Shown in pieces: positions 8,127 through 26,860 of a stretch of DNA of 51,304 bases. Position 1 is the first letter of the stretch. Every line of letters starts with the position of its first letter. A program made the position numbers and the translations under genes. The stretch is from the NCBI GenBank assembly GCA_964487045.1, contig CAZAOT010000002.1:1-51304 (forward strand), given 5' to 3'. This DNA comes from an uncultured Candidatus Saccharibacteria bacterium. GTDB taxonomy: Bacteria > Patescibacteriota > UBA1384 > DTJR01. Below the pieces are notes generated by a model, which did not search any database, was not told the origin of the DNA, and saw only the letters and a list, made by a program, of their open reading frames with translations.

Positions 8127-8132
8127 ACAAAA

Positions 8133-8170: not shown

Positions 8171-8175
8171 ATTGG

Positions 8176-8952: not shown

Positions 8953-9087
8953 TTTAATTAAAGTTTGAGTTAGTTTACATAGTTAGCCAACCCCACCTAC
9001 TCCATACTTATGTATGGGTTAGCGCGACAAATATTTTGTACCTAGCCTCATTATTCGGCTATTCTTGCCCTAGCCCTCTAGGGCAAA

Positions 9088-11730
9088 TTAGATGCTCTTA
9101 CGGACATGCTTCAAGGTATTTATCGAAGGCTCGTCAATCAGCTTTTCCTGAATGTTTTTGGGCTTAGCCGTCGGCTCTTTCTTCTTTTTGACCATTCCCG
9201 TGAAGATCATCTCCAAATACTCATCTACCTCATCTCTTGGGGTAGCATATTTCTCCCTGGAGCGGGCTAGGACAGCTTTTTCTACTTCATCGCTTGGCGA
9301 TATATCAAGCGGAACAGTAACGCCGGAAAAGGCGTTCTCGCTGGCTTCGTTGCTGACTTTCATATAGAAGTGATATGGAGCTAGGTTTACAATATCTCCC
9401 TTTTCGACTTCCGGCTCCATAAATGGTAGTATAAACTTTTCTTCATCCGGACTAGCCTTTAGACATATAATTGTATTGGCGTTGCCGGCTACTACTTTCA
9501 AAATGCTCTGATCTTCGACTTGAGCAATGTTCTGATGGGAAGCAATCAACCCGATTCTGAACTTTCTACCTTCGCTTGTTATCTCGGAAAATCTTGGCGT
9601 GGCAAAATTTTGGAACTCATCAACATATAGAAAGAAATCCCGTCGTTTGTTTTCCGGAATCTTGGTCCGTTGATAAGCCGCCATCCAGATTATTGAAGTC
9701 AATATTGTGCCGAAGAAAAAGCTTTGGTCCTCGCCTAAGTCGCCTTTAGCTAAATTAACCAGCAAGATCTTGCCTTCATCCATGATCTGGCTGATACTAA
9801 TGGTGCTCTTTTCTTGAAGTAAAATATGGCGGGACATTTTGGCAGTAATAAAATGGCCGAGCCTTTGAGTCAGTGGAGCGGTTACGCTTGAGAGCTGCAT
9901 TTTGCCAAGCAAGGCAAACTCTTTATTCCAGAATTGTTTTAGAACCGGATCTCCGAGCGATGCAGCCGTTTTTTTCTGGAAGCTTTTATCGGTCAAAAGT
10001 CTTTGCAGGGTCCAAAGACTTGGGTTTTCGGTTTGCAGAGCCGTCAAGGTGGTATTGCGCAGGATATGTTCCATTCTTGGGCCCCAATATTCTTTAGCTG
10101 TCATCTTAGCGAAGACCGCTAGAACAGAGCTGGTAATCCACTCTTCCTCATCCTCCTTGTCTTGGAACTTAACGCCAGGTGAGAGAATATTCAATCCGAT
10201 TGGCCATTGCCTGTCGGAAGGATCAAAGACAATAACATCATCTTTCCTGTTCTCCGGAATAAGCTTTAAGAGCTCGTGAAACATATCTCCATGCGGATCA
10301 AAAACAGCTAAGCCTTTGCCGTTTACCATATCCTGATAGATTGAGCTTTTGAGCAGAGTGGTTTTTCCAGTTCCTGTTTTGCCGATGACATACATATGCT
10401 TCCGGCGTTGTTCCAGCGTTACACCGATCGGGGTTTGGTATCCAGCATAATCGTTAGACCCAAGTATAATATCTAACTCGGGATTTTCTTTCTTGAACGA
10501 TAGCGGAGCCGGCAACTCACGACTTCTGACACGAGACAAATCTTCAGCATGAACATCTGTAGTAAATGGGAAATGATAAAGCGCTCCGATTTCCGATGGG
10601 GTTAACACCAGCGATCCGCCAATGCGGTGCTTAAACTTCCATAATTGAATTGCTTGAGAAATGACACCAAAGTAATTTCTTTTAACTATTAATGTTTGTC
10701 CGCAAGTATGGCGGTAGCTCATGAATGAAGACCGCAAACCTTTTTCCCGCTCAATCATTTGACCGCTTTCGACTATTAGAAGAGTGCGGATGTTCGTCTC
10801 AAAAAGCGGAGAGCTGAGTTTTGCTTTGGACAGCTCGGAGAATTCAATGTCAGCCGGTGATGGCTCAAATTTTGTTGAAGTAATAGGAACTTTGGTTTCA
10901 TTGCCGGAAACAAATTCAGCTAGAAAAAGAATTGGAACCATTACTACATGAGTGACAAATTCCAATACCCAAACAAAGACTTTAGCTGATCTCTGAGCTT
11001 GGGTATTCTGCGACCAATCAATATGCGGATTACGCCGTAATACTTTTCTCAACCTAGCAGTTTCATGTCTCAAGCCATTTTTACTAGAGTGAATCAATGG
11101 TCTCAGAACAACCTGTAGCGATAAAAGCTCGCCGTCTTTAAGCCGCGACATGTTGGATGTCAAATACGCCAAAGGATCATGCTTGTTAAGATCGGCCTGC
11201 TCACTTAATGGCAGACAGAAATGTTTTTGCTGTGCGAACTCCAAAACCTTTACATTGTTGGAAATTGCTTGAGGTATATATTCTTTAATATGTTCGATCT
11301 TCAAATCCGGTGTATATGCTCGCAAAGTTTTTTCAATAGTTGATGCATAAGACTTTGGGGTGCGGATAACATATTGGATGCCAGTTTCTTTTTTGGAAAC
11401 AATTTCGAATGATGCGGAGATTTGCCGAAAGGTCAGTTTGTCTTTCCATGACTTTTGTTCCAACAGACCCATAATCAAATTGAATAATTGAGTGTTGGAA
11501 ACATTTTGGATCTTGGTATCAACAGGCGGAGTAATTTCCAAAAAAACATATTGCTCTTTCAAGTGGCGGAATAATCGAACTATGTATAAAACAATTACAA
11601 AAAATAGCCATAAGGCTATTAAGTAGAGAGCAATAATGACTAAGCGACTGTAGAGGCCAACCATCTGAGGAGACCAAAATATACGACTAATGCTTTGGAA
11701 GAGGGATAAATTGGAGATACTAAAATTCAT
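9088..11730 (-). CDS. Type IV coupling protein (VirD4/TraG-like ATPase)
   Basis: N-terminal TM helices, Walker A GKTGTGKTT and Walker B-like FFLYVDEFQNF; 880 aa. Confidence 0.8.
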   Translation of the reverse strand: MNFSISNLSLFQSISRIFWSPQMVGLYSRLVIIALYLIALWLFFVIVLYIVRLFRHLKEQYVFLEITPPVDTKIQNVSNTQLFNLIMGLLEQKSWKDKLTFRQISASFEIVSKKETGIQYVIRTPKSYASTIEKTLRAYTPDLKIEHIKEYIPQAISNNVKVLEFAQQKHFCLPLSEQADLNKHDPLAYLTSNMSRLKDGELLSLQVVLRPLIHSSKNGLRHETARLRKVLRRNPHIDWSQNTQAQRSAKVFVWVLEFVTHVVMVPILFLAEFVSGNETKVPITSTKFEPSPADIEFSELSKAKLSSPLFETNIRTLLIVESGQMIEREKGLRSSFMSYRHTCGQTLIVKRNYFGVISQAIQLWKFKHRIGGSLVLTPSEIGALYHFPFTTDVHAEDLSRVRSRELPAPLSFKKENPELDIILGSNDYAGYQTPIGVTLEQRRKHMYVIGKTGTGKTTLLKSSIYQDMVNGKGLAVFDPHGDMFHELLKLIPENRKDDVIVFDPSDRQWPIGLNILSPGVKFQDKEDEEEWITSSVLAVFAKMTAKEYWGPRMEHILRNTTLTALQTENPSLWTLQRLLTDKSFQKKTAASLGDPVLKQFWNKEFALLGKMQLSSVTAPLTQRLGHFITAKMSRHILLQEKSTISISQIMDEGKILLVNLAKGDLGEDQSFFFGTILTSIIWMAAYQRTKIPENKRRDFFLYVDEFQNFATPRFSEITSEGRKFRIGLIASHQNIAQVEDQSILKVVAGNANTIICLKASPDEEKFILPFMEPEVEKGDIVNLAPYHFYMKVSNEASENAFSGVTVPLDISPSDEVEKAVLARSREKYATPRDEVDEYLEMIFTGMVKKKKEPTAKPKNIQEKLIDEPSINTLKHVRKSI

Positions 11731-11827
11731 ATGCTCCTGGCCCGCCTCCTTATTCTGTTGTTAGGTTGCTATTTAAGGTTTAGCATAATGCGTGTATAAA
11801 TGTAAAGCCTGAGAGCAAAATAGCCTC

Positions 11828-11869
11828 TTGACAACTATCTGTATAAAGATATATTATCTATATATAGAT
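11828..11869 (+). promoter_or_regulatory. Sigma70-like promoter plus a 14-bp perfect palindrome upstream of the recombinase operon
   Basis: TTGACA (11828-11833), 17-nt spacer, ATATTA (11851-11856); atctatatatagat (11856-11869); then AGGAGGAGG and ATG at 11879. Confidence 0.5.
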
Positions 11870-11878
11870 AGGAGGAGG

Positions 11879-12073
11879 ATGGACGATCTAAGTGCAAATG
11901 CTCACATTAAGGCCAAAGAACCAAGCGAACTGCTCTCTATTGAAGAATGCAAGAAACAGCTTAAAAAGTATAACTTATCGGACGAGCAGATACTCCAGCT
12001 CAAGAACGGTTTAATTGGAATTGTAGACAGTATTATTAACTCGTATATAAATGAATTCGATCAAACCCGATAA
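11879..12073 (+). CDS. Small (64 aa) helical protein co-transcribed with the recombinase; function unknown
   Basis: Strong SD and ATG at 11879; overlaps the recombinase start. The track's 11828 start falls on the -35 box, so it was rejected. Confidence 0.35.
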   Translation: MDDLSANAHIKAKEPSELLSIEECKKQLKKYNLSDEQILQLKNGLIGIVDSIINSYINEFDQTR

Positions 12074-13706
12074 AGAATACACAAAGGCTGTTATTTACTG
12101 CCGCGTTTCCTCTGAGAAGCAGGTTAAGGAGGGAAACGGCTTAGATAGCCAAGAACATAGGTGCAGGGAATACGCTGCTTCTCTTGGCCTTGAGGTAGTA
12201 AATGTTTTCAGGGATGAAGGCATATCCGGCGGACTTTTTGATCGGCCGGCAATGAAATCGCTAATAAAGTTTTTGGATAATAATTGGCAAAACAAATACT
12301 GTGTCATTTTCGACGACCTCAAGAGATTTGCCAGAGATGTTCAGGTTCACATAAGACTAAAAACAGAACTAAAGGTTCGGGAAGCCAAGCCTTGCTGCTT
12401 AAATTATAATTTCGATGATAGCGCCGAGGGCGAATTTGTCGAGACAATTTTTGCAGCTCAGAATGAGCTTGAGCGCAAGCAAAATCGAAGACAAGTTTGC
12501 CAGAAAATGAAGGCTAGAATGGAGCGTGGATATTGGTGTCTTCAAGCGCCAGTTGGTTACGAGTACAAAAAAGATAAAGAGCATGGCAAGATTATTGTTC
12601 CTATTCCGGAAATTGCCAACATATTGGCGGAAGGACTGAATAAGTTTGCTGATGAACAGCTCGTCAGGCAAGTCGATTTACTTAACTTTTTCCTTTCCAA
12701 GAATTTGCAGGATTTGATGGGGATTAGGCGGCTTAGGTCTGATCATGTAAAGAACATTTTGACCAGGTCTTTGTATACCGGAATCGTTGAGTATCCTGAG
12801 TGGGGTGTAGAGCCGCGCGAAGGATATCACCAAGCCATAATCTCAAAAGATACCTACGAGCGAATACAAGTTCGCCTCAGAAGACCCGAGAGGAAACCAA
12901 GAGAAACAGATAGTTTGGAGTTTCCTTTGCGACGAGTGGTGAATTGTTCAGTCTGCGGTACTAAAATGACCGGTAGCGTCAGTAAAGGCAAAGTTAAATA
13001 TTATCCTCACTATACATGCAACAACAAAGAGTGCACCGCCAATCCGAAAAACATCACCGCTTCCAAAATGGAAGAAGATTATATTGATCTCTTGGATAAA
13101 ATCAAGGTCGAACAAGAGATATTGGAAATCGGCAAAATTGTCGCAACGAGAATATGGAAACAGAAAGTTAAAGATATTGACGCGAATCAAAAGATGAAAG
13201 AATCAGAGAAGAAAGAATTGGAACAAAAGATTTTTGAGTATATCGACTTAGTACCAAAAGCCAAATCAGACGCAGTAAGGACGCACTATGAGGCCAAAAT
13301 TGAGGATTTAGATAAGCGCATCAAAGAGCTGGATGAAAAAGTAGAAAATAAAAAAACGCCTGACTTTTTTGAGGCGCTTAAATTAACAATGAAATTCCTT
13401 GGAACACCGGCCGAAACGTGGGTAAACTCGAATAATCAGCTTAAAATTGTGCTTCACAATATGATATTTGCCGAGAACCCGAGTTATTGCTTAAATACCG
13501 GATTTGGAACACCTAAATTGTCGCTCCCATTCCATATAAAGGACCATATTGACGACGATAATGGTGATTTGGTGGACCCGACAGGATTTGAACCTGCGAC
13601 TTTCTGCATGCCATGCAGACGCTCTACCGCTGAGCTACGGGCCCAAAATGTATTTGATAACTTTGGTCTATATTACCATCTCCAAACCATATTTTCAACC
13701 CGTTAG
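12051..13706 (+). CDS. Large serine recombinase (Rec1)
   Basis: Resolvase-type catalytic N-terminus VIYCRVSSEKQ...DDLKRFARD, recombinase domain, Zn ribbon CSVCGTK...YTCNNKEC and a coiled coil. The last 45 codons run antisense across tRNA-Ala(GGC) and its promoter. Confidence 0.85.
   Translation: MNSIKPDKEYTKAVIYCRVSSEKQVKEGNGLDSQEHRCREYAASLGLEVVNVFRDEGISGGLFDRPAMKSLIKFLDNNWQNKYCVIFDDLKRFARDVQVHIRLKTELKVREAKPCCLNYNFDDSAEGEFVETIFAAQNELERKQNRRQVCQKMKARMERGYWCLQAPVGYEYKKDKEHGKIIVPIPEIANILAEGLNKFADEQLVRQVDLLNFFLSKNLQDLMGIRRLRSDHVKNILTRSLYTGIVEYPEWGVEPREGYHQAIISKDTYERIQVRLRRPERKPRETDSLEFPLRRVVNCSVCGTKMTGSVSKGKVKYYPHYTCNNKECTANPKNITASKMEEDYIDLLDKIKVEQEILEIGKIVATRIWKQKVKDIDANQKMKESEKKELEQKIFEYIDLVPKAKSDAVRTHYEAKIEDLDKRIKELDEKVENKKTPDFFEALKLTMKFLGTPAETWVNSNNQLKIVLHNMIFAENPSYCLNTGFGTPKLSLPFHIKDHIDDDNGDLVDPTGFEPATFCMPCRRSTAELRAQNVFDNFGLYYHLQTIFSTR
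13570..13644 (-). tRNA. tRNA-Ala (anticodon GGC), CCA encoded
   Basis: Hand-folded cloverleaf: GGGCCCG/CGGGTCC acceptor with G3:U70, D-stem GCTC/GAGC, anticodon loop ATGGCAT, T-arm GCAGG-TTCAAAT-CCTGT, ACCA. Confidence 0.9.
13670..13698 (-). promoter_or_regulatory. Promoter of tRNA-Ala(GGC)
   Basis: On the minus strand: TTGAAA, 17 nt, TAATAT, about 26 nt before the tRNA 5' end. Confidence 0.5.
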
Positions 13707-13792: not shown

Positions 13793-15325
13793 TCAAGGTT
13801 GGCGAGGTAAGATTAATGATTCGTCAAAGTAATCAACTTTTGGAAGACCGGAGAGCGAAATACATGTAGATGCAACATTGCTTAGACGAAGTCCTGGTTT
13901 TAATTTAAATTTGCCGTAATTGCTAACTACAATAAACGGAACTGGATTTTTCGTATGCTCTGTGTCTGGTCCGCCGTAGACTGGATTTACCATTTGTTCG
14001 ATATTACCATGGTCTGCAGTTAGGACTAAAATTATATCTTCGTCTAGGCAAACTTGGACTAACTCTTTTAGCACATCATCGATTGTCTGGACAGCCTGCA
14101 GGGCTGCCCTAAAATCACCAGTGTGGGCAACCATGTCTCCATTTGCAAAGTTGCATATATAAAATGGATAATCGGAGTTTTTTATATGTTTAATGAGTTC
14201 ATTTTTTACTCCAACTGCCGACATCTGTGGTTTTTGAGCATATGACTCAACAGCGGGAGAGGGTATTAGGATGCGATCTTCCATTGGATATGGTTCTTCT
14301 CGGTTGCCATTAATGAAAAATGTTACATGAGCAAATTTTTCTGTTTCAGCAATGTGAAATTGCTTTAAATTATTTTGAGAAATATATTCTCCGATAGTAT
14401 TTGATACTTTTGCTTTCTGAAATGCAATCTTAGCCTTTAGGTTTAATTCTTTTTCAATTCCATATGGGATAAATGAAATAAAGTCCAAATTAAGAAATTT
14501 ATCTCTTTTAAATTTATCAAAATCTTTTGCTAGAAATGCTTGAGACAACTGCCTGGTTCTATCAGATCTGAAATTGAAGAAAACGAGTATATCACCCTCG
14601 GAAATTCTTTTGCCACCCTCTATTATTCGAGGAGTAATATATTCGTCAGTTTCACCATCTCGATATGCCTGAGAGAGTGCGGCTAATGCAGATTTTGATT
14701 TAATTCCCTCGCCGTTTACTAGAGCATTATAAGCAGTCTGAGTTCTAACCCAATTTCCTTTTCTATCTAAGAGAACCCTGCCCATAATTGTAGCGATTTT
14801 TCCACATTTATACTGAGCTATAATTTGTTCTAAGCGATCAACAAATTCTAATCCCTTGTATACATCAGTATCTCTTCCGTCTGTAAATAGATGTAAATAT
14901 ATTTCGGGAGCATTCATGGAGCAGCATAATTCCAGAAGTGCGATTAAGTGGTCAATGTGAGAATGAATCCCTGCATCAGAAAGAATACCCATAAAATGAA
15001 TTGGAACTTTTCTTGCAATAGATGACTTAACCGCCTCGATTAATACCGGATTCTTGAAAAACTCCTTGTTCTTAATCGATCTATTTATTGCGGTAACATC
15101 CTGTTCGATTATGTTACCTCCACCTAAATTCATATGGCCTACCTCAGAGTTACCAACTTCGTGTCCAGGTAGTCCTACGTAACGTCCAGAGGCGTGCAGA
15201 AGGGTATTTGGATATGTTCTTAGTAATTTATAGAATGTTTTTGGATGAGCGGTTGAAATCGCATTACCACCCCAGCTAGAAGAAGACCCCCAACCATCAA
15301 GTATTACAAGAGCTAGCTTTCTCAT
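13793..15325 (-). CDS. gpmI: 2,3-bisphosphoglycerate-independent phosphoglycerate mutase, paralog 2
   Basis: LDGWG, NSEVGH (catalytic Ser), ANGDMVAHTG and TADHGN motifs; ATGA start/stop overlap with paralog 1. Confidence 0.8.
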   Translation of the reverse strand: MRKLALVILDGWGSSSSWGGNAISTAHPKTFYKLLRTYPNTLLHASGRYVGLPGHEVGNSEVGHMNLGGGNIIEQDVTAINRSIKNKEFFKNPVLIEAVKSSIARKVPIHFMGILSDAGIHSHIDHLIALLELCCSMNAPEIYLHLFTDGRDTDVYKGLEFVDRLEQIIAQYKCGKIATIMGRVLLDRKGNWVRTQTAYNALVNGEGIKSKSALAALSQAYRDGETDEYITPRIIEGGKRISEGDILVFFNFRSDRTRQLSQAFLAKDFDKFKRDKFLNLDFISFIPYGIEKELNLKAKIAFQKAKVSNTIGEYISQNNLKQFHIAETEKFAHVTFFINGNREEPYPMEDRILIPSPAVESYAQKPQMSAVGVKNELIKHIKNSDYPFYICNFANGDMVAHTGDFRAALQAVQTIDDVLKELVQVCLDEDIILVLTADHGNIEQMVNPVYGGPDTEHTKNPVPFIVVSNYGKFKLKPGLRLSNVASTCISLSGLPKVDYFDESLILPRQP

Positions 15326-16884
15326 CTTAAGGCTCCTAAAAGATTAATCCCGCTCATTTCAGCAGATTTTTCGATGCCCAATGACTGGGAAATCGTTGGG
15401 GCTATATCGGCAAGTATTCCGACTGGTTCGCTATTAAATAATTCATCCTTTGATATGTAGCGGCCTTTATATTTAAGGTCGCAATAGATAAACGGAACAG
15501 GATTGAGAGTGTGCTCTTTGTTTGGTTTGCCTGTAGCAAAATCAATCATTTCATCGCAATTACCATGGTCTGCGGTAATAATTACTCGATAATCTTTCCT
15601 AAGAAGCTCTCCGACTAATTTCCCCAATACCTGGTCAAGTATTGATACTGCGTTTTTGGTAGCTTCAAAATTTCCGGTATGACCAACCATATCTCCATTT
15701 GCAAAATTAGCTGCAATAAAATTAATCCCTGAATTTGCAGCTGCAACTATCTCGTTTGAAATTTCCACCGCTCTCATTTGTGGATACTGGTCAAAGCTTT
15801 TTACTTTCTTCGTCTGAATAATTTTATCGATTTCGCCATTAAATACTTTCTTATCGCCCCCTGCAAAGAAATATGTGATATGCGCAAACTTCTCTGTTTC
15901 TGCCACATGAAATTGCTTCAGATTATTCTGAGAAATTATTTGACTAAGTGGATTGCGCAGTGGATTTGTTTCGGGGTTGTTTAAATCGAGATTGGAAAAA
16001 AGCACATTAAGCCCCAGGTTGTCATCATAGGTAGTCATCGAATAGAAATTTCTAGTAATAGATCTTCGTTTGATGTCTGGTAAATTTGGATCCACAAAGG
16101 CGCGAGTCATTTGTACTGCTCTGTCAGATCTATAGTTTGTAAAAATAAAAACATCCTTAGTAAAATCAAAAACGTCTTCCGAGAAGCTTACCGGTTCAAT
16201 GAACTCATCGGTTTTTCCTGCGGCGTATGAATCTTCGATTACCTGATTCGGGTTGTTGGCTTTCTTACCAATTCCAGTTATTGCGTCATATGCAAGCTGT
16301 ATCCTGTCCCAATTTTTATCTCTGTCCATCGCGTAATATCTTCCCATCATTGATCCAAAACTAGTTAGTTTGCCAATTTGCTTAGAGATGTGGTCTAAAA
16401 ATAACTTAGATGATTTTTCCGCCGTATCTCTTCCATCAGTTATTGCGTGAAGGATAATTTTTGTTTTGGGCTTATCGCTTTTAATTAACTTAACTAAACT
16501 AATCAAATGATTAATATGTCCATGGACAGCTCCATCGGACATTACAAACAAGACATGAATGTTAGATCCTGACTCAGCGGAGTCAATGATTTTTTTATAC
16601 TCAGGTTTTTTTCTAAATTCACCATTTGTAAGTTTTAGAGTTATTTGTGGCAGATCTTGCAAAACAATTCTACCTAGGCCGATCGCAGTATGACCAACCT
16701 CACTAGAGCCAAATTCTCCCCAGGGAAGACCAACTTCTTCAGCCGAAGCTTTTAGGAGACACTTTGGGAATACTGGCAGGATAGCATCGAGATTCGGAGT
16801 AGGAGTATTTAAAATAGCATTTCCAGTGAGTTCTGGAGTTATTCCAAAACCATCCAATATCAGAAGCGCTACTTTTTTTGACAC
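15322..16884 (-). CDS. gpmI: 2,3-bisphosphoglycerate-independent phosphoglycerate mutase, paralog 1 (GTG start)
   Basis: LDGFG, SSEVGH, ANGDMVGHTG and TADHGN motifs; SD GGAGCGAGG upstream of the GTG. Confidence 0.85.
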   Translation of the reverse strand: MSKKVALLILDGFGITPELTGNAILNTPTPNLDAILPVFPKCLLKASAEEVGLPWGEFGSSEVGHTAIGLGRIVLQDLPQITLKLTNGEFRKKPEYKKIIDSAESGSNIHVLFVMSDGAVHGHINHLISLVKLIKSDKPKTKIILHAITDGRDTAEKSSKLFLDHISKQIGKLTSFGSMMGRYYAMDRDKNWDRIQLAYDAITGIGKKANNPNQVIEDSYAAGKTDEFIEPVSFSEDVFDFTKDVFIFTNYRSDRAVQMTRAFVDPNLPDIKRRSITRNFYSMTTYDDNLGLNVLFSNLDLNNPETNPLRNPLSQIISQNNLKQFHVAETEKFAHITYFFAGGDKKVFNGEIDKIIQTKKVKSFDQYPQMRAVEISNEIVAAANSGINFIAANFANGDMVGHTGNFEATKNAVSILDQVLGKLVGELLRKDYRVIITADHGNCDEMIDFATGKPNKEHTLNPVPFIYCDLKYKGRYISKDELFNSEPVGILADIAPTISQSLGIEKSAEMSGINLLGALR

Positions 16885-17032
16885 TTGTGCCCCTCGCTCC
16901 GTGAATTGCGCTCCAAGGCAGGAAGCAATTCCGGAAGTCCCGTCACTTTGATCCCTACTTGCCTGCCGGTAGGCAGGTTCGCAAATTTCTTAGATTAAGA
17001 ATATTGCGAGAGGGTGAAAAGTGACTGGGATA
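16885..17032 (-). repeat. Structured intergenic repeat, copy A (5' of gpmI)
   Basis: Shares ordered sequence blocks and stem positions with 18167-18290 (see findings). Confidence 0.6.
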
Positions 17033-18166
17033 TTAATTCTCCATTTTTTTTATTATATCCATTGTGATATTTTTGCTTCGCTCTACAGCAGGTTGGTCAA
17101 ATGGATTTACGTCTCTTAGGATTGATGAATAGAAAGCAACAAGATGCCAGAATGCCGTCAGCTCACCAACTGTCTTAGGAGATATTTCATTTATCGACAG
17201 TGTTACATTTGGCACATTTTTTTCGTCCGCATCTCCCTTGGTTCCTAGATATTCAGCATCGAGAGCGTCTTCATATTTAACTTGATCTACAAAAGCAAGT
17301 TTTTCGCCTTTGTAGTTAACTTCTGCTATCTCTTTCGGTACTTCGATTTTTTCGCTTGAGCCACTATTTGAGGTAATAAATGTTCCAATAACATTATCCT
17401 TGCCACCCAGGAAGCGCTGATTAGTATGGTGTTGAGCCTCTGGTCCCATCGCAAAGTAAAATGTTTGCCCCTTTCCATCCTTGCATGCAGACTCATGCAT
17501 AAGCTGGACTATAAGATTTTCAAAGCCAGCTAACGACTCTGAGTAACACGTTACATACACTTCGTTGTATCCATCACTCTCTTTATCAAAATAATACTTT
17601 GAGAGAGTATATGCTTCATTTTTTAGATTTTTGTAGCCAGAGTCCATGCCCTCTTGTATTCCTTTAATATCAATTCCGCAAAGTGCTGCTGATACAAATG
17701 TTGATGAAGTACCTCCTGAGAATCTGCCTCCTACAGTAGGATGCTCAATGACAGCCCAATTCATTTTCTTGGCTATTTCAAGCATTGTTCCACCTTCTAG
17801 ATTCGTAACTACAACTACAGGAAACTCCTTGAAGTATAATAGGGATTCTATTTGCCCCAGCGTATTTCCAGATTTCGATACTGAGACGACGATAGTATCC
17901 TCTGGCGAGTATTTAGACTTAATCTTTTTTAAGTACTGCGGATCCATTGTCCAGACAGAATCGGTAAGTTTTTCAGGTAGCAAAGCGTGACGATAAGCGT
18001 CAAAGCTAGTTATCGATCCGCCGTTACCAACAACGATAATGTTTTTTGTCGTCGGAGAGATCTTTTTAATCTCTTCTTCTAACTTTTGTAAATCTTCTCG
18101 GTAATCAAAAACTTCCGACCAATCCGAAGTTGCCTGCTCAATATTCTTGAGATCTATTTTTATCAT
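17033..18166 (-). CDS. pgi: Glucose-6-phosphate isomerase (short SIS-type)
   Basis: VSKSGNTLGQIE (SKSGxT motif), two SIS-like halves, 377 aa. Confidence 0.7.
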   Translation of the reverse strand: MIKIDLKNIEQATSDWSEVFDYREDLQKLEEEIKKISPTTKNIIVVGNGGSITSFDAYRHALLPEKLTDSVWTMDPQYLKKIKSKYSPEDTIVVSVSKSGNTLGQIESLLYFKEFPVVVVTNLEGGTMLEIAKKMNWAVIEHPTVGGRFSGGTSSTFVSAALCGIDIKGIQEGMDSGYKNLKNEAYTLSKYYFDKESDGYNEVYVTCYSESLAGFENLIVQLMHESACKDGKGQTFYFAMGPEAQHHTNQRFLGGKDNVIGTFITSNSGSSEKIEVPKEIAEVNYKGEKLAFVDQVKYEDALDAEYLGTKGDADEKNVPNVTLSINEISPKTVGELTAFWHLVAFYSSILRDVNPFDQPAVERSKNITMDIIKKMEN

Positions 18167-18290
18167 ATTTCGCTCCGTGTCCAGCTCGTTACGAAGGGCT
18201 GGACCGGAAGTCCCTCACTTTGAAAACCTATTCGTAAATTTCTCAAATTGAGAATATTGCGAGAGGTTGAAAAGTGACGGGATCAACCCT
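18167..18290 (-). repeat. Structured intergenic repeat, copy B (5' of pgi)
   Basis: Same block order as copy A; the hairpin adjacent to the SD has a different sequence but the same position and length. Confidence 0.6.
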
Positions 18291-18567
18291 TAGTTTTTAC
18301 TCTTATATCTTATCGAAAAGACATCTTTTTGCAAATAAAAAAACACCCTTCGGTGAATTGTCTAATCTGGTGGGCGCGCTTTTGGAGTGGAGCCAAAAGC
18401 TATTCCTATTGGGAATCGGTCACAAGTCGGTGCAATATTTTTTACATATGAGCGCACCGCTCGCGACCCCGCCTCCTTCATTCGCAAGCTCATTCAGTCC
18501 GGCCTTCGATTCAACATGCAACCAAATATTTTTCCCACTTGGGCTTTCGCCCAAATCGGGAAAAATC

Positions 18568-18585
18568 TGGTGGGCGAGGTGGGAA
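18568..18585 (-). repeat. Exact 18-nt copy of the tRNA-Leu(CAA) 3' end (candidate distal att site)
   Basis: tggtgggcgaggtgggaa is identical to 36185-36202 in the same orientation. On the minus strand it is followed by a strong GAAA-tetraloop hairpin (18538-18566) that looks like a native tRNA terminator. Confidence 0.6.
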
Positions 18586-18813
18586 CCTCGACGACAATTG
18601 ATATTTTGAAGGAACGTCGTCTTGCGAACCCGGGTTCGATTCATCATTTCGTCAATCAAAATATCGCCCTCACGGACGATCTTTCGATTGGTGGAGCAGT
18701 CCGGTCTGGACCTTTTGGGGGCTTTTTGAGCTGAAAATGTTACACAATGTTACAGTATAAAAAAGGAACTAAATAAGCTTGGCTAACCTGTTGTTTTATG
18801 ATAAATTGTTCTT

Positions 18814-19521
18814 ATGGCTGAAAAACCAGAATCACTTGAAGGTAGATGGGATATTTTATATAAGGATTATCCTGAAGTTTATGATGAATTTGCTCAAGTT
18901 CAGAAGACTCCACCGTTAAATCTTGCTAAAAAATATAACCTAGCAGGAAAAACAATCGCAGATATTGGATCTGGAACGGGCGACTCTTCGTTTGTTTATT
19001 CTAGAGTTGCTAAAGAAGTAATAGGTGTTGAGATTGAACCCGCTATGATTGAGGTCGCCGAAAAAAGAGCCAAGGACGAAAATATTAAAAATGTCCGATT
19101 TATTCAGGGTGAAATGGAACAAATTCCGCTAGAGGGTAATTCGGTTGATGCAGTGATTGGTGCTACTCTTGCACCTCAACACCCGGAACAATTTGAGGGT
19201 TTTTCTAAAGAAGCTGAACGGATAACAAAATCCGGCGGTGTCATTATTTTATTAAACATTGCGCCTGGCTGGACAGGCGGTGAATTACACGACGTCATTG
19301 AAGATTATGATGGTTGGGGCGAAAGAACTGATAAGGTGTTGGCTGATTGCGGATTTGAATATGAAGATTTGTATCAAGATCAAGAATATGGATCAATTGA
19401 TAAAATCGTAAGAACTTATGGCTTTATATTTGGTAAAAAAGTCATTGAGTATCTAAAAAAGCACAACAAAACAAATGTTCGGTGGAAGTTGAGAATTAGG
19501 TATAAAGTTGTTCAAAAATGA
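18814..19521 (+). CDS. Class I SAM-dependent methyltransferase
   Basis: Motif I IADIGSGTGDS and motif II-like region; no SD, with TATGAT about 12 nt upstream of the ATG (possibly leaderless). Confidence 0.75.
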   Translation: MAEKPESLEGRWDILYKDYPEVYDEFAQVQKTPPLNLAKKYNLAGKTIADIGSGTGDSSFVYSRVAKEVIGVEIEPAMIEVAEKRAKDENIKNVRFIQGEMEQIPLEGNSVDAVIGATLAPQHPEQFEGFSKEAERITKSGGVIILLNIAPGWTGGELHDVIEDYDGWGERTDKVLADCGFEYEDLYQDQEYGSIDKIVRTYGFIFGKKVIEYLKKHNKTNVRWKLRIRYKVVQK

Positions 19522-20396
19522 ATAAAGCAACTAAAACAATTCTGTTGCTCGTGCTTGCCGCAATTCTTGGCGGTGGCGTAGGAACTCTCGCAAAAATAGG
19601 CCTTAGGGAATTTCCGCCAATTCCTTTTACTTTCTTGAGATTTTTGATGACATTAATTGTTCTGCTACCGATCTTTCTGTATCAGCGAAATAAATTTAAG
19701 TTTCAGAGCTTCAAAAAATTATTTTGGATTCTGCTGTTTGGGGCGGGCAATATTTTTATGTTTATCTATGGCGTTCGCTTAACAACAGCTTCGTCATCGC
19801 AAGTTGTTTATGCTTTCTCTCCACTGATTGCAGGAATACTTTCTTATATTCTATTTAAAGAAAAATTGGGACCAAAGCGATTCTGGGGAATTATTGTCGG
19901 ATTTGTTGGAACATTGGTTGTGGTATTGTACCCCGTGGTATTCGGCAATTCAGTAATTAATGGGTCGATAGCAGGAAATTTATTAGTTCTCATTGCGGTC
20001 ACTTCTCATTCAGCCTACTCGGTTCTGTCAAAAGAAAAATTAAAAGAATTCTCTCCTCTTTATTTAACGACTTACTCAGCATTATTTACATTTATCCTCA
20101 GTCTAATACTTTTGCCATTTAACTTGACAGGGATATCTTGGACCATTCCGTCGACTGGGGCAATTTTATCTGTAGTATATGCAGGAGCACTCGGAACTGC
20201 CGCCTATTTCTTCATTTATCAGTATGCAATAAAGCAATCCTCGGGTGTAACCGCAACAATGGTTTTATATCTACAGCCGATCTTCGGTTTCTTTTGGGCT
20301 GCAACACTATTAGGAGAGCGACTGACAGCAGGACTGATAATAGGAACGATTTTAGCTTTTACGGGAGTATTCCTGGCAGTTGGACAGAAAAATTGA
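19518..20396 (+). CDS. EamA/DMT-family transporter
   Basis: 10 TM helices in two EamA-like halves; ATGA overlap with the preceding gene. Confidence 0.75.
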   Translation: MNKATKTILLLVLAAILGGGVGTLAKIGLREFPPIPFTFLRFLMTLIVLLPIFLYQRNKFKFQSFKKLFWILLFGAGNIFMFIYGVRLTTASSSQVVYAFSPLIAGILSYILFKEKLGPKRFWGIIVGFVGTLVVVLYPVVFGNSVINGSIAGNLLVLIAVTSHSAYSVLSKEKLKEFSPLYLTTYSALFTFILSLILLPFNLTGISWTIPSTGAILSVVYAGALGTAAYFFIYQYAIKQSSGVTATMVLYLQPIFGFFWAATLLGERLTAGLIIGTILAFTGVFLAVGQKN

Positions 20397-20449
20397 CTGT
20401 ATTTCGCAACTAACAACAAAATTATGGAAAGATTATAAACCGGAGTCAC

Positions 20450-21271
20450 ATGAGTAAAGTTAAAATCGCAGTTGCACAATTTGAGATAGCTCAATATAAG
20501 CCGATGGAGAATCTGCTGAAAGCCGAGCAGATGATAAAAAATGCATCAGGCAAAGCTGATCTAATTGTGTTCCCGGAAGATTTTGTAACGGGACCAATCG
20601 AAGCCAAACACGCTCTAGCATCAAAGGATGAAAAATACTTAAGATATTTTCAAAATTTAGCCGACAAATTCAAGATAGATATTGTTCCCGGCTCAATGAT
20701 TGTTGAAAAAGAGGGTAAGCTTTATAACACAAGCTACTACATTGATAATACTGGCAAAGTGTTAGGCGAATACCAAAAAATAAATTTATGGCATCCCGAG
20801 CGATCGCATTTTGAGCCAGGAAATAAAGTGCGAGTGTTTGACACCAGATTCGGCAAAGTTGGACTCGCCGTCTGTTGGGATTTGATTTTTCCCGAGCCGT
20901 TTAGAGGAATGGCCAAACTTGGTGCCGAAATTATTATTTGTCCAAGCTATTGGTGTTATGGCGACTCTGCTCCGGTAAATACAGTAAATCCCAATGCAGA
21001 AATTGACGGAGTTGATGCTCTTTGTGTTGCTAGAGCATATGAGGACAATGTGATTATGGTTTATTGTAATGCTGCTGGAAATATACAGATAGGAACTTAT
21101 AAAGATCGGCTAATTGGCCATTCACAAATTACTGCTCCAATTCTAGGAGTGATAAAAAAGTTAGATCATAATAACGAAGAACTATTCATTTCTGAAGTCG
21201 ATCTGAATATTCTAAAAGATTCCGAGTCGGTTTATAAAATCCGAGAAGATTTGAGAAAGAAAAATGATTAA
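20450..21271 (+). CDS. Carbon-nitrogen hydrolase (nitrilase superfamily)
   Basis: Catalytic E-K-C context: VFPED, YQKINLW, LAVCWDLIFPE. Confidence 0.8.
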   Translation: MSKVKIAVAQFEIAQYKPMENLLKAEQMIKNASGKADLIVFPEDFVTGPIEAKHALASKDEKYLRYFQNLADKFKIDIVPGSMIVEKEGKLYNTSYYIDNTGKVLGEYQKINLWHPERSHFEPGNKVRVFDTRFGKVGLAVCWDLIFPEPFRGMAKLGAEIIICPSYWCYGDSAPVNTVNPNAEIDGVDALCVARAYEDNVIMVYCNAAGNIQIGTYKDRLIGHSQITAPILGVIKKLDHNNEELFISEVDLNILKDSESVYKIREDLRKKND

Positions 21272-21890
21272 AGCAGTTATTTTCGATGTTGATGGTGTTT
21301 TGCTTGACTCGTTCGATGCTAATCTGAAGTTCTTTCAGGACTTAATGCTAAAAACAGGATATCCATCCCCGACACGCGAAGAATTTCCACCAATCTTTCA
21401 TCTAAATATGAAAGATGCAATCAGGAAGCTGACTAAATCTGAATCAGAAGAAGAAATACAAAGGATCTGGGAGATTGGTAAAAGCAGAGAAGTTCCGTAT
21501 GATATCAAATTATTGAAACATCCAAACAGCCTCGAAATTGTGATAAATAAATTACACGATAATTATAAATTAGGCATTGTAACGAGCAGAGTCAGAGAAA
21601 GTGTTTGGGAAGCTCCTGGCCTGAAAAAGTTGAAGAATTATTTTAAAATCGCAGTTGGCTACCAAGATACTGAGAAGCATAAACCCGAGCCAGAACCATT
21701 ACTTCTTGCCAGCGAAAGAATCGGAGTTCAGCCAGAGGATTGCGTTTATATCGGTGATGTGATAAATGATGTCACCGCAGCTCGTGCGGCAGGGATGAAT
21801 GTTATTATTTATTCAAAAAATGTTATCGATTCGGCTGACCGTCATACTACAGATTTTAAAGAGTTACCCAGATTAATTTCAGAGCTTTAG
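21264..21890 (+). CDS. HAD-superfamily hydrolase (phosphatase type)
   Basis: Motif I FDVDGVLLDS, motif III K (EKHKPEPEP), motif IV GDVINDV. Confidence 0.8.
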   Translation: MIKAVIFDVDGVLLDSFDANLKFFQDLMLKTGYPSPTREEFPPIFHLNMKDAIRKLTKSESEEEIQRIWEIGKSREVPYDIKLLKHPNSLEIVINKLHDNYKLGIVTSRVRESVWEAPGLKKLKNYFKIAVGYQDTEKHKPEPEPLLLASERIGVQPEDCVYIGDVINDVTAARAAGMNVIIYSKNVIDSADRHTTDFKELPRLISEL

Positions 21891-21894
21891 ACTA

Positions 21895-22080
21895 ATGGCA
21901 AAATCAAGCAAAAAGTTCAAAGTCGAATATGAGTGTATCTATGACTCGCTAAGTCCGGAAGAGAAAGCAAGGGCTGACTGGAACATCGAGCAAGCGTTCG
22001 ATATGATATTCGACAAGGCTTTTGATGAATTACTCCAGAAAAAATCATTTCCAGAGTTTCCGATAGTTGACAAAAAATAG
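21895..22080 (+). CDS. Hypothetical small acidic protein
   Basis: ORF only; no recognisable motif. Confidence 0.3.
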   Translation: MAKSSKKFKVEYECIYDSLSPEEKARADWNIEQAFDMIFDKAFDELLQKKSFPEFPIVDKK

Positions 22081-22265
22081 TTAATCGTATTAAAATATAA
22101 CCTAGCACGTTAAAAGAAAGTTGAACTTATCACAAGGCAATGATGTAAGCGATAGCTTATAGAGGTTGCTTTGCATCATAGCGAATTCGCTAGATAGCAA
22201 TTAAATTGGTCTTTAAGCGGGACCAGTACCTGAAGGGTACATATTAATTGCATCTAGCAAGATGA

Positions 22266-22288
22266 CCCTTCAGACGAAGGGCTTTTTT
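22266..22288 (+). terminator. Intrinsic terminator in the 22.08-22.32 kb intergenic region
   Basis: cccttc-agac-gaaggg stem followed by c-tttttt. Confidence 0.6.
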
Positions 22289-22316
22289 AGTTAACTAATG
22301 CCTAAAAGGAGGCAAA

Positions 22317-23645
22317 ATGAAAAACACACACAAAATAGAATATGTGCCAACTAAGGATTTGATCGCTAGCGATTACAATCCGCGCAAGTGGAACGATAAA
22401 CAACTTTCCGATCTTAAGGAGAGTATCAAAAAATTTGGATTTGTTGACCCAGCAATTATCAACTCGAATCCGAATCGCAAAAATATAATAATTGGCGCAC
22501 ATATGAGAATTATCGCGGCCAAAGAAATTGGAATTGAAAAAGTTCCTGTTGTCTATGTCGATATCGCAGACATCGAAAAAGAAAAAGAGCTCAACTTACG
22601 ATTAAATCGCAACACGGGAGAATTTGATTTTAAGCTTCTAGCAGAGTTTGACGAAAAATTCTTAGCCGATGTTGGATTTGATTCGGAAGAACTGGACGAT
22701 ATCTTTGATATCGAAACAGAGCCAGAACAATTCGATGTAAACCGTGAACTTGAAAAGCTCAAGATTTCAAAGATAGAAATCGAACCGGGAGATACTTACA
22801 TTCTAGGCAAAAACAGGTTGATGTGCGGAAACAGCATGGTAGAAGATGACATTATCAAGCTAATGAATGGCGAGAAAGCCGACATGTGTTTCACTGATGA
22901 GCCATATGTCCTCAATTACCTCCAGGGAAAGCGGCACGGTAAGCCGACAGACGGATTCGGAGCCAAGAAAAACAGGAAATATATCGGAACTGATGAATTG
23001 CCGCCTGATTTCATTGAGCTCTGGACAGCCAACGTCGCCAAGATCCAAAATGAAAACTTCAATATTATTGCCTTCGAGAACTGGAAAAATGTCCGCGAAC
23101 TATGGGGAGCAATGGAAAAATTCTGGACTATCCGCAATATGATAATTTGGAAAATTCCAAATAGAAATCAAGGATATTCCGCCAAGCACAAATTCTTCTC
23201 TAAATATGACATTGCTGTGGTTGGAACAACGCCCGGCAAACAGTTAAATCTTGAGCCCGAAGAAGAGCTACTGCAAAATGAGTATCAGACGGCACTGTTT
23301 GCCACATCGGGCGATGCTCAGTGGGAAGGATATGAAAAAGGCAAGAAGTATTGTCCTACCGATATGATTGAATCGAAAGCTGGCGATGAGAAAAGTACGG
23401 GGCAGGCAATTATTTTTGGGACAAAACCTGTTGAAATCCTCATTCCATACATCAAGGTTCTTACTAAAAGAGATGACCTTATTATCGAACCATTCGGCGG
23501 ATCTGGTAGTACCTTGATTGCTGCCGAGACATTAAAACGCCGATGTTATGTAATGGAAAAATGTCCGATCTATGCCGAGGTGATTAGAAACCGTTGGGAA
23601 AAATTCACCGGAGAAAAAGCAGAGTTGATCAAGAAGGCAAAATGA
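22317..23645 (+). CDS. ParB-like nuclease domain fused to an N4/N6 DNA methyltransferase (phage-type)
   Basis: N-terminal ParB/Srx-like block (DYNPRKW...GAHMRIIAAKEIG), DPPY-like TDEPY motif IV, then FGGSGST motif I (beta-class order). Confidence 0.8.
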   Translation: MKNTHKIEYVPTKDLIASDYNPRKWNDKQLSDLKESIKKFGFVDPAIINSNPNRKNIIIGAHMRIIAAKEIGIEKVPVVYVDIADIEKEKELNLRLNRNTGEFDFKLLAEFDEKFLADVGFDSEELDDIFDIETEPEQFDVNRELEKLKISKIEIEPGDTYILGKNRLMCGNSMVEDDIIKLMNGEKADMCFTDEPYVLNYLQGKRHGKPTDGFGAKKNRKYIGTDELPPDFIELWTANVAKIQNENFNIIAFENWKNVRELWGAMEKFWTIRNMIIWKIPNRNQGYSAKHKFFSKYDIAVVGTTPGKQLNLEPEEELLQNEYQTALFATSGDAQWEGYEKGKKYCPTDMIESKAGDEKSTGQAIIFGTKPVEILIPYIKVLTKRDDLIIEPFGGSGSTLIAAETLKRRCYVMEKCPIYAEVIRNRWEKFTGEKAELIKKAK

Positions 23646-24094
23646 GTGATGTAGATTCGAAGGTTCAGATCAGAACTGCGCAAAATCAAAAAATCCTAAT
23701 TGAGCAATTCATTAAAACGCCAATCATCGAAGTCGCTTGCCAAAAGGTTGGTATCAGTCGAAACACATATTACCGCTGGCGAAGAGCAAGCAAGAAATTT
23801 GCTGCTTCAAGCGACAAGGCTATCGAAGAGGGCTGCCAATTCATAAATGATTTGGCAGAAAGCAAGCTCATTACAGCGATGAAAGATAATAATCTGACCG
23901 CTGTGATGTATTGGCTTAATCACCGCCACAACGCCTACAAGAATAAGCTTGAGGTTTCCGGTGGTCTAGAAATCAAAAAAGATGAATTAACTAAGGAGCA
24001 GGAAGAGAGCATTATGAAGGCATTAGAACTGGCCTCGCTCATAACTTCCAAAGGAGGGAAGAATGAAAAGGAAAAAGAAAAACCAAATAAGTAA
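23642..24094 (+). CDS. Terminase small-subunit-like HTH protein
   Basis: HTH VACQKVGISRNTYYRWRR. Start chosen at the ATGA overlap with the methylase stop. Lies directly upstream of, and overlapping, TerL. Confidence 0.45.
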   Translation: MSDVDSKVQIRTAQNQKILIEQFIKTPIIEVACQKVGISRNTYYRWRRASKKFAASSDKAIEEGCQFINDLAESKLITAMKDNNLTAVMYWLNHRHNAYKNKLEVSGGLEIKKDELTKEQEESIMKALELASLITSKGGKNEKEKEKPNK

Positions 24095-25661: not shown

Positions 25662-25806
25662 GATTGACAAAATGTAAAGTCTACATTACATTATTATCTG
25701 GGCAATCACCAAATCTGTTTGCAGGTGCGACTTCTAGGGCTTGGTCGCGAAAGCGACACGAAGAAGGTGGTTGAATCTTCGTAAATCGAAGATTGAAGGA
25801 GTCAAA

Positions 25807-26061
25807 ATGGCTTTTAGTCAAGAAACTCTCAATCAAGCATGGCGAAGAGCTGGCGGTACGTGCGAATGCACTCGTCAGTGCCCGACTCATTCAGGATATC
25901 GATGCTCCAAGGTCCTAGACCCGAGTAATAAGGTACCTGAGATGAAATGGCACGCGCACCATATAGTATCGCAAGATGCTGGTGGTCCAGATACCCTGGA
26001 TAACTGCGAAATCCTCTGTATCGCGTGTCACAAAAACACCGAAAGTTTTGGCGGCAGATAA
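25807..26061 (+). CDS. HNH endonuclease
   Basis: HAHHIV...DTLDNCEILCIACHKNT; start at ATG 25807 with SD GAAGGAG. Confidence 0.75.
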   Translation: MAFSQETLNQAWRRAGGTCECTRQCPTHSGYRCSKVLDPSNKVPEMKWHAHHIVSQDAGGPDTLDNCEILCIACHKNTESFGGR

Positions 26062-26092
26062 GTCACCTTTACTTTCGGTCTCGTAGGCGATT

Positions 26093-26118
26093 AGGGATCT
26101 TCGGATCCCTTTTCGTTT
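26093..26118 (+). terminator. Intrinsic terminator after the HNH gene
   Basis: agggatc-ttcg-gatccct followed by tttcgttt. Confidence 0.65.
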
Positions 26119-26138
26119 GATGTTATTATAATATCACA

Positions 26139-26804
26139 ATGAAAAATATTAAAGAAATCGATACTAGCGAAACAACCGAAGAACAAATACTGCAAACAAG
26201 GGAGCTTTTGAAAAGCAAATATAACCTCCGAATACCTAAACCCGACTTACTTAAACTAATTAAGCTGATGAAGGAGTTAAGTTGGTGGCTGGAGCGGGCA
26301 TCTAGTGATTCGCCCACTCATGTATCTGAAGAAAGAGCATTTGAGATCCAGAAGATGATCAAGAAGGAATATGGTAAGGATATAACACTAGCTGAGTCCT
26401 TCGATGCGGTACGGGGTTTGATGGTATTAGTTCCTTTCAAAGAAAAGCAAAGATTAGCCGATGAGATGAGAGCGATTATGGTTAAATATCAAAAAGTAAA
26501 ATATGATAAATCACTTTCGGAGAAAACGGCAAAGTTATTTCAGCTTCATTATGAAATAGAGCTTGCTGACAAGGAGTTAAAGGACTTAGTTTATTTTATA
26601 AGTAAAACGGTTTGGTACGAAGAGGGTCTCGACGAATCACCTGAACAATGTGTCGATGATCTTTTGGTTTATATAGATAAGCGCAAGCGCGGAAAACGAA
26701 CAAATTATCTCAAACTTCATGATAAAGTCCGCCAGAGTCTTGATTGGGCGGTGAAAGAAAAATTAAAAATGAAAAAATTTAAACCCCTTTACCAAAAACA
26801 GTAA
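26139..26804 (+). CDS. Hypothetical 221-aa helical protein
   Basis: ORF with coding-like composition; no motif recognised. Confidence 0.4.
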   Translation: MKNIKEIDTSETTEEQILQTRELLKSKYNLRIPKPDLLKLIKLMKELSWWLERASSDSPTHVSEERAFEIQKMIKKEYGKDITLAESFDAVRGLMVLVPFKEKQRLADEMRAIMVKYQKVKYDKSLSEKTAKLFQLHYEIELADKELKDLVYFISKTVWYEEGLDESPEQCVDDLLVYIDKRKRGKRTNYLKLHDKVRQSLDWAVKEKLKMKKFKPLYQKQ

Positions 26805-26821
26805 CCCGTTTCAGTTAGGAC

Positions 26822-26851: not shown

Positions 26852-26860
26852 AATTTCATT

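Follow-up and report, generated by a model that had tools for sequence, protein, structure and literature searches.

A discrete two-hairpin element, present or absent between close relatives, beside the Shine-Dalgarno sequences of unrelated genes in Berkelbacteria-like bacteria

Transcribed interspersed palindromic repeats are known from several bacterial groups and include ERIC (IRU) of enterobacteria, Correia (CREE/NEMIS) of Neisseria, and BOX and RUP of Streptococcus pneumoniae. All of these are known or proposed to alter the stability or processing of messenger RNA (mRNA). ERIC, Correia and RUP elements carry terminal inverted repeats, and Correia and ERIC are precedents for mobility and RNA function at once. 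A different group is formed by hairpin-ended, non-autonomous elements: derivatives of IS200/IS605-type elements have neither terminal inverted repeats nor target duplications and carry hairpins near both ends, and REP elements are mobilised by RAYT tyrosine transposases. These two groups are the closest known kinds to the element described here, which occurs twice, as copies A and B, in a stretch of 51,304 nt (contig CAZAOT010000002.1, referred to as the window) from a bacterium of the candidate phyla radiation (CPR). Both copies belong to one operon, in which a pgi-like gene is followed by tandem gpmI genes.

With ERIC, Correia, BOX and RUP the element shares a unit of 100-150 nt, long imperfect hairpins, intergenic dispersal, co-transcription and presence or absence between relatives, and its modular make-up recalls that of BOX (boxA-B-C). 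In contrast to ERIC, Correia and RUP it has no terminal inverted repeat and a duplication of at most 1 nt in one pair of filled and empty sites. It differs from all four families in its sense-only orientation, in a 3' end located at the Shine-Dalgarno sequence (SD), in two separate hairpins instead of one long palindrome, in its unrelated sequence and in the host phylum. The family is undescribed: Rfam 15 contains no family matching the window copies at E up to 10 or nine other loci at E up to 1, and searches of the literature on structured RNAs or repeats of CPR bacteria and Berkelbacteria, and on the sequence blocks themselves, yielded nothing relevant. As detailed below, the element behaves as a discrete insertion/deletion whose ends are exact, some close relatives having it and others lacking it at one and the same site, and compensatory changes maintain its helices. 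The two copies in the window are located as follows.

16895-17031, minus strand: element copy A, 137 nt, between the stop codon of pgi and the start codon of gpmI-1
18171-18283, minus strand: element copy B, 113 nt, in the 5' untranslated region (UTR) of the pgi-like gene

The ends of both units were set by a covariance model together with the points at which other copies diverge; at the flanks of copy A, contigs carrying other copies part from the window sequence at 16895 and at 17031-17038. In cmsearch, covariance model R1 scores copy A with 101.3 bits (E 7e-21) and copy B with 102.8 bits (E 3e-21), and no further copy is detected with the covariance model elsewhere in the window, even with the filters off.

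Exact ends are visible in the leader of rpsB. Four relatives, with RpsB proteins 85-87% identical, have a common promoter, TTG(T/C)C(A/T)-N17-TAAGAT, whose TAAGAT -10 box, seen also in the promoter-like sequence at copy B, precedes rpsB leaders both with and without the element. The filled site of locus L088 reads ...ACACAATTTA[GTCCC...CACGGAGCG]AAAGGAA, with the element in brackets, and the empty site of L101, which shares the promoter and encodes an RpsB 87% identical to that of L088, reads ...ACACAATTTAGAAAGGAA. The two sites thus differ by a clean indel of 101-102 nt that begins and ends where the folded unit does, one G at most being ambiguous. The element is also absent from the rpsB leaders of L100 and L102. 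Within the operon of the window the same pattern recurs. The pgi-gpmI spacer of the nearest relatives, L031 and L032 (PGI identity 83% and 82%), comprises 24-35 nt and is element-free; on a contig of sequencing run X5 21 nt stand in place of copy A, and on a contig of run X8 18171-18302 are missing, with CAGAGGAGA in place of copy B. The pgi leaders of the relatives L027, L029, L030, L001 and L003 are element-free as well, and those of more distant relatives are plain AT-rich sequence. Where copies do occupy matching sites, they are 88-90% identical between flanks of 57-62% identity, and the gatB coding sequence downstream of one such pair is 82% identical.

When the first 20 nt are set against the reverse-complemented last 20 nt, the 18 copies show 3-9 matching positions, so that a terminal inverted repeat is lacking, and a target-site duplication amounts to at most 1 nt in the single filled/empty pair (L088/L101). 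Among the hallmarks of miniature inverted-repeat transposable elements (MITEs), presence/absence polymorphism at collinear sites is found here, and terminal inverted repeats, target duplication and two orientations are not. The initial annotation, which was made from the two window copies, had considered a REP/MITE-like palindromic repeat as one explanation. In respect of the exact-ended indel this idea came nearer to the truth, but it does not account for the sense-only orientation, the missing terminal inverted repeats and the location at the SD.

The internal organization of the two copies is given below, together with the signals that flank them.

16938-17030, minus strand: 5' rod domain of copy A, based on the minimum-free-energy fold and on covariation in helices 1-4 of alignment A4
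17018-17030 and 16938-16949, minus strand: helix P1 of copy A, UCCC-A-GUCACUUU paired with AAAGUGAC-GGGA
16979-17009, minus strand: helix P2 of copy A, an imperfect palindrome with a 2x2 UA/AU internal loop; helix P1b of the same rod is CCCU/AGGG
16956-16977, minus strand: GC-rich palindrome of 22 nt, CCTGCCTACCGGCAGGCAAGTA, inserted on the 3' side of the copy A rod and lacking in copy B
16897-16936, minus strand: second hairpin (P3) of copy A, with foot UUCCGG/C(A)CGGAG, upper helix AAUUGC/GCAAUU and then UUCC/GGAG (main class)
16890-16895, minus strand: GAGGGG, SD of gpmI-1 (GTG start 16882-16884), host sequence at the 3' end of copy A
18211-18282, minus strand: 5' rod domain of copy B, with P1 UCCC-G-UCACUUU/AAAGUGA-GGGA
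18232-18262, minus strand: helix P2 of copy B, with one C.A mismatch; helix P1b of the same rod is AACCU/AGGUU (both based on fold and covariation)
18173-18209, minus strand: second hairpin (P3) of copy B, with the foot as in copy A and the alternative upper helix UCCAGC...GCUGGA
18307-18334, minus strand: promoter-like TTGCAA-16 nt-TAAGAT, 23 nt upstream of copy B, a by-eye reading with 8/12 consensus positions
about 18337-18355, minus strand: terminator-like hairpin with T run, preceding the candidate promoter of copy B

An automated promoter scan did not list the box at 18307-18334, which falls below its threshold. The kinship of the two copies is evident from a 51-nt direct repeat of 88% identity (16978-17028 and 18231-18281), found in a repeat search of the window, and from shorter blocks common to both spacers, CCGGAAGTCCC, CC(G/C)TCACTTTGA and TCGCTCCGTG, in addition to the inverted repeats that close each unit. 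A 28-mer from the common core, GTCACTTTTCAMCCTCTCGCAATATTCT, occurs exactly twice in the 51-kb window, compared with 0.00 occurrences expected in shuffles. The ordered blocks that had been recognized initially in both spacers are thus real, with one coordinate displaced by a base. The same is true of the 6-bp helix of different sequence at the same place in both copies (aattgc/gcaatt at 16904-16909/16925-16930 and tccagc/gctgga at 18180-18185/18198-18203), of the central palindrome in which a T:A pair of one copy is C:G in the other, and of the pairing cccgtcacttt/aaagtgac(t)ggg, which corresponds to P1 and closes the 5' domain. Folded as mRNA strands, the two window copies reach z-scores of -6.3 and -4.8 against shuffles, and the opposite strands of both fold equally well or better.

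The palindrome nested in copy A (CCTGCCTRCCGGCAGGCAAGTA) has two occurrences on the minus strand of the window, one at 16956-16977 and one at 36947-36968 beside a tRNA-like fragment, with 0.00 expected by chance, and the P2 loops of copies L066 and L089 contain a GC-rich hairpin that is similar. The nested palindrome resembles REP sequences and may represent a second, REP-like mini repeat.

Further copies were sought with a pattern scan of metagenomes, in which the two blocks around the variable hairpin were fixed (GGGACTTCCGG-N14-40-CACGGAGCG) and both strands were covered. Among the 65 loci obtained, 18 (16 distinct) are AT-rich and display the whole architecture; the remainder were dismissed as chance matches in GC-rich coding DNA. 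A covariance model built from ten copies recovers 19 copies at 35-121 bits in cmsearch, 16 of which had been found through the pattern. Contigs from wastewater runs containing this genome were aligned to the element region, where the depth over the element is 5-25 times that of its flanks. Several of these contigs match the element and then diverge directly after ...CACGGAGCG into an SD and an ATG, for example GAGGAAATATG and GGGGTAATTATG. From the depth ratios and from a single copy that turned up unascertained in ~80 kb of flanks, the number of copies per genome can be guessed at roughly 10-25. A metagenome search with a 22-mer from the junction gave 0 matches, and a scan of genome contigs for the central palindrome (TCGCAATATTCT N5-9 AGAAATTT) gave 22 single matches in unrelated phyla, none of which was confirmed by nhmmer, so that they were treated as chance. 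Viral contigs contained no element or chance matches only, and the metatranscriptome contigs of a study containing the organism gave no coverage. Judged by the sequences of neighbouring genes, such as an RpsB beside one copy that is closest to Candidatus Berkelbacteria, the hosts are Berkelbacteria-like CPR bacteria.

Read along the mRNA strand, the full unit of about 100-155 nt consists of R-UCCC, the 5' arm of P1, an inner rod, the 3' arm of P1, GGGA, a single C, the second hairpin and a terminal CG. The inner rod occurs in at least three sequence types that are unrelated to each other and have only the helix feet in common:

rod type 1, the type of the window: CCUCUUGCAG-UA-UUCU...AGAA-AU-CUGCAA
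rod type 2: L036, L038, L048, L077 and L093
rod type 3: L080 and L088

Across these types the shape of the rod is kept, at about 28 bp with internal loops. The second hairpin combines the conserved foot UUCCGG/C(A)CGGAG with a variable helix and loop on top. In its main class (h6-UUCC-loop-GGAG-C-h6') the 6-bp helix h6 is fully Watson-Crick paired in 13/13 copies with 7 different sequences. Several alternative tops exist besides, and the class seen in copy B recurs in L040. Since both classes are found at other loci, copies A and B represent two recurrent top variants and not drifted duplicates; the two different upper hairpins of the initial annotation are real, but they are not the product of drift between two copies. 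The domains can also stand alone, as a copy reduced to the 5' domain lies upstream of gatB in L088 and L101 and copies reduced to the 3' hairpin are present in X1 and X2. Some copies moreover harbour small nested palindromes that are GC-rich.

Due to the three unrelated types of inner domain a ligand pocket is unlikely, and a riboswitch was rejected on the grounds that conserved pocket nucleotides, a coherent gene set and an Rfam match are lacking. A self-cleaving ribozyme is likewise unlikely, given that no core is conserved across the three rod types and no Rfam ribozyme matches. On reading the three rod types no convincing -35/-10 pair of an internal promoter was seen. An integron attC site, which has R''/L''-L'/R' boxes and marks the 3' end of a cassette, was discarded as well, as the element ends carry no GTTRRRY core and the copies do not lie in cassette arrays.

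What unites copies with otherwise different parts is a conserved hub, composed of UCCC/GGGA, C, UUCCGG/C(A)CGGAG and CG. Such a hub could be the landing site of a global trans-acting factor, either a protein, a small RNA or the 30S subunit recognizing SD-like GGAG tracts that are masked by CUUCC, so that a single signal would act on the expression of at least a dozen genes. Three SD-like purine tracts in series (GGAG, GGAG, GAGG), the first two of which are each paired with UUCC, and the presence of the only SD of pgi in a hairpin foot would fit this proposal. However, the invariance of the hub is largely imposed by the search pattern, and there are copies that consist of the 5' domain or of the hairpin only. 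The genes downstream are functionally incoherent, the element is patchy among close relatives and no candidate factor was found, which makes a regulon of this kind quite improbable.

Covariation was computed on a model-fitted alignment of the 19 copies, an alignment that leans towards structure. Within it 93.1% of the cells are paired, and 32/44 pairs have changed on both sides (129 cells). The covariation score of 0.395 compares with 0.117 in column shuffles, none of 500 reaching the observed value, and drops to at most 0.10 when the partners are slid by 1-3 columns. Helices P1, P1b and P2 and the upper P3 helix vary freely in sequence while retaining their pairing. A repeated structured unit, which the initial annotation had left to be judged by covariation in a larger alignment, is thereby borne out. 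The strand on which the structure is selected is less clearly marked. G.U cells outnumber A.C cells by 44 to 18, with 16 of the G.U cells stemming from a pair that the search pattern prescribes, type-2 copies have A.C mismatches in P1 that would read as G.U on the opposite strand, and z-scores are alike on both strands. Assigning the strand by wobble pairs failed accordingly; the mRNA strand is not singled out once the pattern-imposed pair is set aside.

The placement of the copies is uniform. Each of the 19 copies runs in the sense direction of a flanking transcription unit, as determined by pattern and model searches on both strands. In 16 of the 18 full copies the start codon follows 8-17 nt past the 3' end of the element, and in most copies a working SD lies just outside the hairpin. 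The 3' flank begins with an all-purine tetranucleotide in 17/18 full copies, being GAGG in 9/18, and the 5' flank is AT-rich without a fixed word (18 copies). Several copies are situated 17-30 nt downstream of good sigma-70-like promoters, and in others a stop codon or an intrinsic terminator precedes the element. In L072 and L089 the element comes right after apparently one and the same gene, a dnaJ-like frame judged only by a similar C-terminal peptide; as both copies face a convergent gene, they lie in a 3' UTR.

At some loci a terminator-like hairpin with T run was noticed between promoter and element, or at a distance of only 7 nt on its 5' side, where no room is left for a separate promoter. 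Examples are L077 (~12790-12862 in element orientation, this interval being counted on the reverse complement of the stored locus and the element itself lying at 369-490 of the locus as stored) and the flanks on the X2 contig.

In the window the role of the GGAG tract differs between the two copies. The initial annotation had taken it as the SD of both genes, which is correct for pgi only: in copy B the GGAG at 18173-18176, within the P3 foot, is the only SD of pgi (ATG 18164-18166). In copy A the GGAG belongs to the foot of the second hairpin and gpmI uses GAGGGG just downstream, an AGGGGCA motif being found 5' of gpmI in the element-free relatives L031 and L032 as well. A hairpin with a wobble pair and a bulge at the SD, enclosing it in copy B, is reminiscent of ROSE and fourU thermometers and of 5' stabiliser hairpins. 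In contrast to thermometers, the SD lies mostly outside the hairpin, the genes are not heat-shock genes and the unit is insertion-polymorphic. Location in intercistronic spacers, a single orientation relative to transcription and proximity to start and stop codons are shared with mycobacterial MIRUs, which are tandem direct repeats with small overlapping open reading frames (ORFs) and not hairpins; the present element is a hairpin structure.

The genes downstream of the copies encode ribosomal proteins S2 (rpsB) and S15 (rpsO), nusA, ndk, GAPDH, a GalU-like nucleotidyltransferase, rubrerythrin, a Phd/YefM antitoxin, gatB, DUF3048, DUF5654 and unknown proteins, in addition to pgi and gpmI, and thus have neither functional coherence nor a single pathway in common. 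This bears directly on the leading idea of the initial annotation, in which the repeat coordinates glycolytic genes as a cis-regulatory RNA or operator. It is true that both window copies stand before genes of a single glycolytic operon and that one further copy lies in front of GAPDH. However, most copies stand 5' of non-glycolytic genes (rpsB, rpsO, nusA, ndk, galU, rubrerythrin, the antitoxin, gatB and DUF genes), the three inner-domain types offer no conserved pocket, and the orthologous pgi and gpmI leaders of the nearest relatives do without the element. A glycolysis-specific riboswitch or DNA operator is therefore essentially excluded. Copies scattered at intergenic sites in either orientation had been named as the mark of a REP-like repeat; scattered among unrelated genes they are, but the opposite orientation never occurs.

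The main rival reading is a host-selected cis-acting element for leader function or processing. Its conservation would be due to RNA function, with spread by duplication being secondary; the rod would serve as an RNase III-type target or a protein landing pad, and the second hairpin would protect the processed mRNA and present the SD. Orientation and distance to the start codon fit, as does the expression level of many downstream genes, which are typically highly expressed (rpsB, rpsO, nusA, ndk, GAPDH, rubrerythrin). The sigma-70-like promoters upstream of several copies would place the element in the 5' UTR, copies at matching sites have compensatory changes and are better conserved than their flanks, and a rod shape that is constant over three sequence types fits shape recognition. 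However, close relatives keep the same genes behind the same promoter without the element, so that it is dispensable, the two copies of L072 and L089 lie in a 3' UTR between convergent genes, and the wobble statistics do not favour the mRNA strand, both strands folding equally well. An RNA function as the primary cause is possible, but less likely than the reading that follows.

The reading preferred here, with modest confidence, is that of a non-autonomous mobile element which would be mobilised in the form of a folded single strand, is incorporated into 5' UTRs and probably has an effect on the RNA that does not depend on the gene. A hairpin-recognising enzyme would move the folded strand, and the conserved helix feet would bring the two element ends together, as in hairpin-dependent elements. 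The enzyme would either prefer a purine tract, or only insertions at that spot would survive; either way the element would be co-transcribed into 5' UTRs and intercistronic spacers. Two stable hairpins beside the SD would then probably change processing, stability or translation initiation whatever the gene, and no glycolytic metabolite would be sensed.

This proposal draws on the likeness to REPs and to palindrome-associated elements derived from IS200/IS605 (PATEs), with which the element shares the absence of a terminal inverted repeat and of a duplication, hairpins near the ends with conserved feet and variable tops, and strand-specific insertion beside a short preferred sequence. The likeness is incomplete. 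The hairpin feet of the element are 1-2 nt from its ends, unlike those of IS608, in which the canonical cleavage sites are 10-19 nt from the hairpins, and the flank preference is a loose purine tract and not a fixed tetra- or pentanucleotide as in IS200/IS605, a preference that selection could mimic. From REP sequences and BIMEs, GC-rich palindromes of 20-40 nt that are frequently arranged as inverted pairs at gene 3' ends, the element is set apart by its length of 101-154 nt, its two hairpin domains and its location mostly 5' of genes.

Several observations tell against mobility as the explanation. No transposase or other mobilising enzyme, and no Y1/HUH transposase in particular, was found among the window ORFs scanned, and no autonomous version with matching ends was seen. 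The invariance of the two conserved blocks is in part a matter of ascertainment, because the search pattern fixed them in 16/19 copies. The purine flank and the sense-only orientation could result from selection for RNA function and not from target choice. Finally, where two organisms have a copy at one site, the copies are distinguished by compensatory changes, from G-C to A-U in P2a (L088 copy 2 and L101) and from U-A to C-G in P1 (L072 and L089), which suggests selection on the structure in situ, and a purely selfish element would not need such selection. It should be noted that a mobile element and a function in RNA are compatible readings.

A bolder version of target choice is that the element homes to SDs, in that its CUUCC tracts, which are anti-SD-like, or an enzyme reading purine tracts direct sense insertion exactly 5' of ribosome-binding sites. 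Such homing is a speculative and improbable extension; if true, the element would provide captured genes with a structured, portable leader by which their translation or stability is reset, and would be a mobile translation-control cassette peculiar to CPR bacteria.

The genes of the operon are as follows.

17033-18166, minus strand: pgi-like gene, 377 aa, short and divergent, with Pfam PGI and NCBIfam matches that are all below the equivalog cut-offs
15322-16884, minus strand: gpmI-1, cofactor-independent phosphoglycerate mutase (TIGR01307, 499 bits)
13793-15325, minus strand: gpmI-2, the tandem cofactor-independent phosphoglycerate mutase (TIGR01307, 549 bits)

Homologues of the PGI are named WS2, Berkelbacteria and Colwellbacteria, and among the matches listed only CPR bacteria and DPANN-type archaea occur. 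The tandem gpmI pair is conserved in relatives throughout. A comparison of the window with L001, L003, L029, L030 and L031 gives the operon of relatives as pgi-eno-gpmI-gpmI, and eno is missing from the operon in this genome and in its two nearest relatives; none of the window ORFs scanned was recognised as an enolase.

The remainder of the window contains further mobile DNA. The region 136-13706 codes for an M23 peptidase, a VirB4/TraG-like ATPase, PrgI, two type IV secretion system pilins, a coupling protein, a relaxase-like protein and an ArsR/thioredoxin/permease cassette, and ends with a large serine recombinase abutting tRNA-Ala(ggc) at 13570-13644; it looks like an integrated conjugative element. 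On the other side of the operon, a stretch of ~18 kb from pgi to tRNA-Leu(caa) (36185-36271), spanning about 18340-36271, comprises a ParB-DNA methylase, a 1385-aa helix-turn-helix STAND NTPase, a DUF4352 protein and a serine recombinase (33059-34432), and a further serine recombinase is located just beyond the tRNA gene at 37100-38590. The stretch is absent in relatives, in which Sua5, the tRNA and pgi are adjacent, and a degenerate copy of the 3' end of tRNA-Leu is present at about 18340-18420. The stretch probably represents an island that has integrated into the tRNA gene. Within it, a full-length LOOT RNA (Rfam RF03000, 93.7 bits) is found at 32815-32937 on the minus strand, directly 5' of an unknown 389-aa ORF (31629-32798) and beside the large serine recombinase of 33059-34432. 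An identity of LOOT RNA with the element was rejected, the sequences being unrelated.

As a caution for the annotation of such genomes, a repeat 5' of two related genes need not be a pathway-specific switch. The genomes of CPR bacteria are tiny and encode few regulators that can be recognised, and hardly any non-coding elements have been described in them. If the placement beside the SD is a matter of target choice, the insertion specificity of the element is unusual; if it is a matter of selection, the element constitutes a new generic mRNA leader. The 5' UTRs of housekeeping genes such as rpsB, nusA, pgi and others have been rewritten in some lineages and not in their close relatives, and these natural pairs with and without the element allow tests of leader structure against expression in organisms not yet grown alone.

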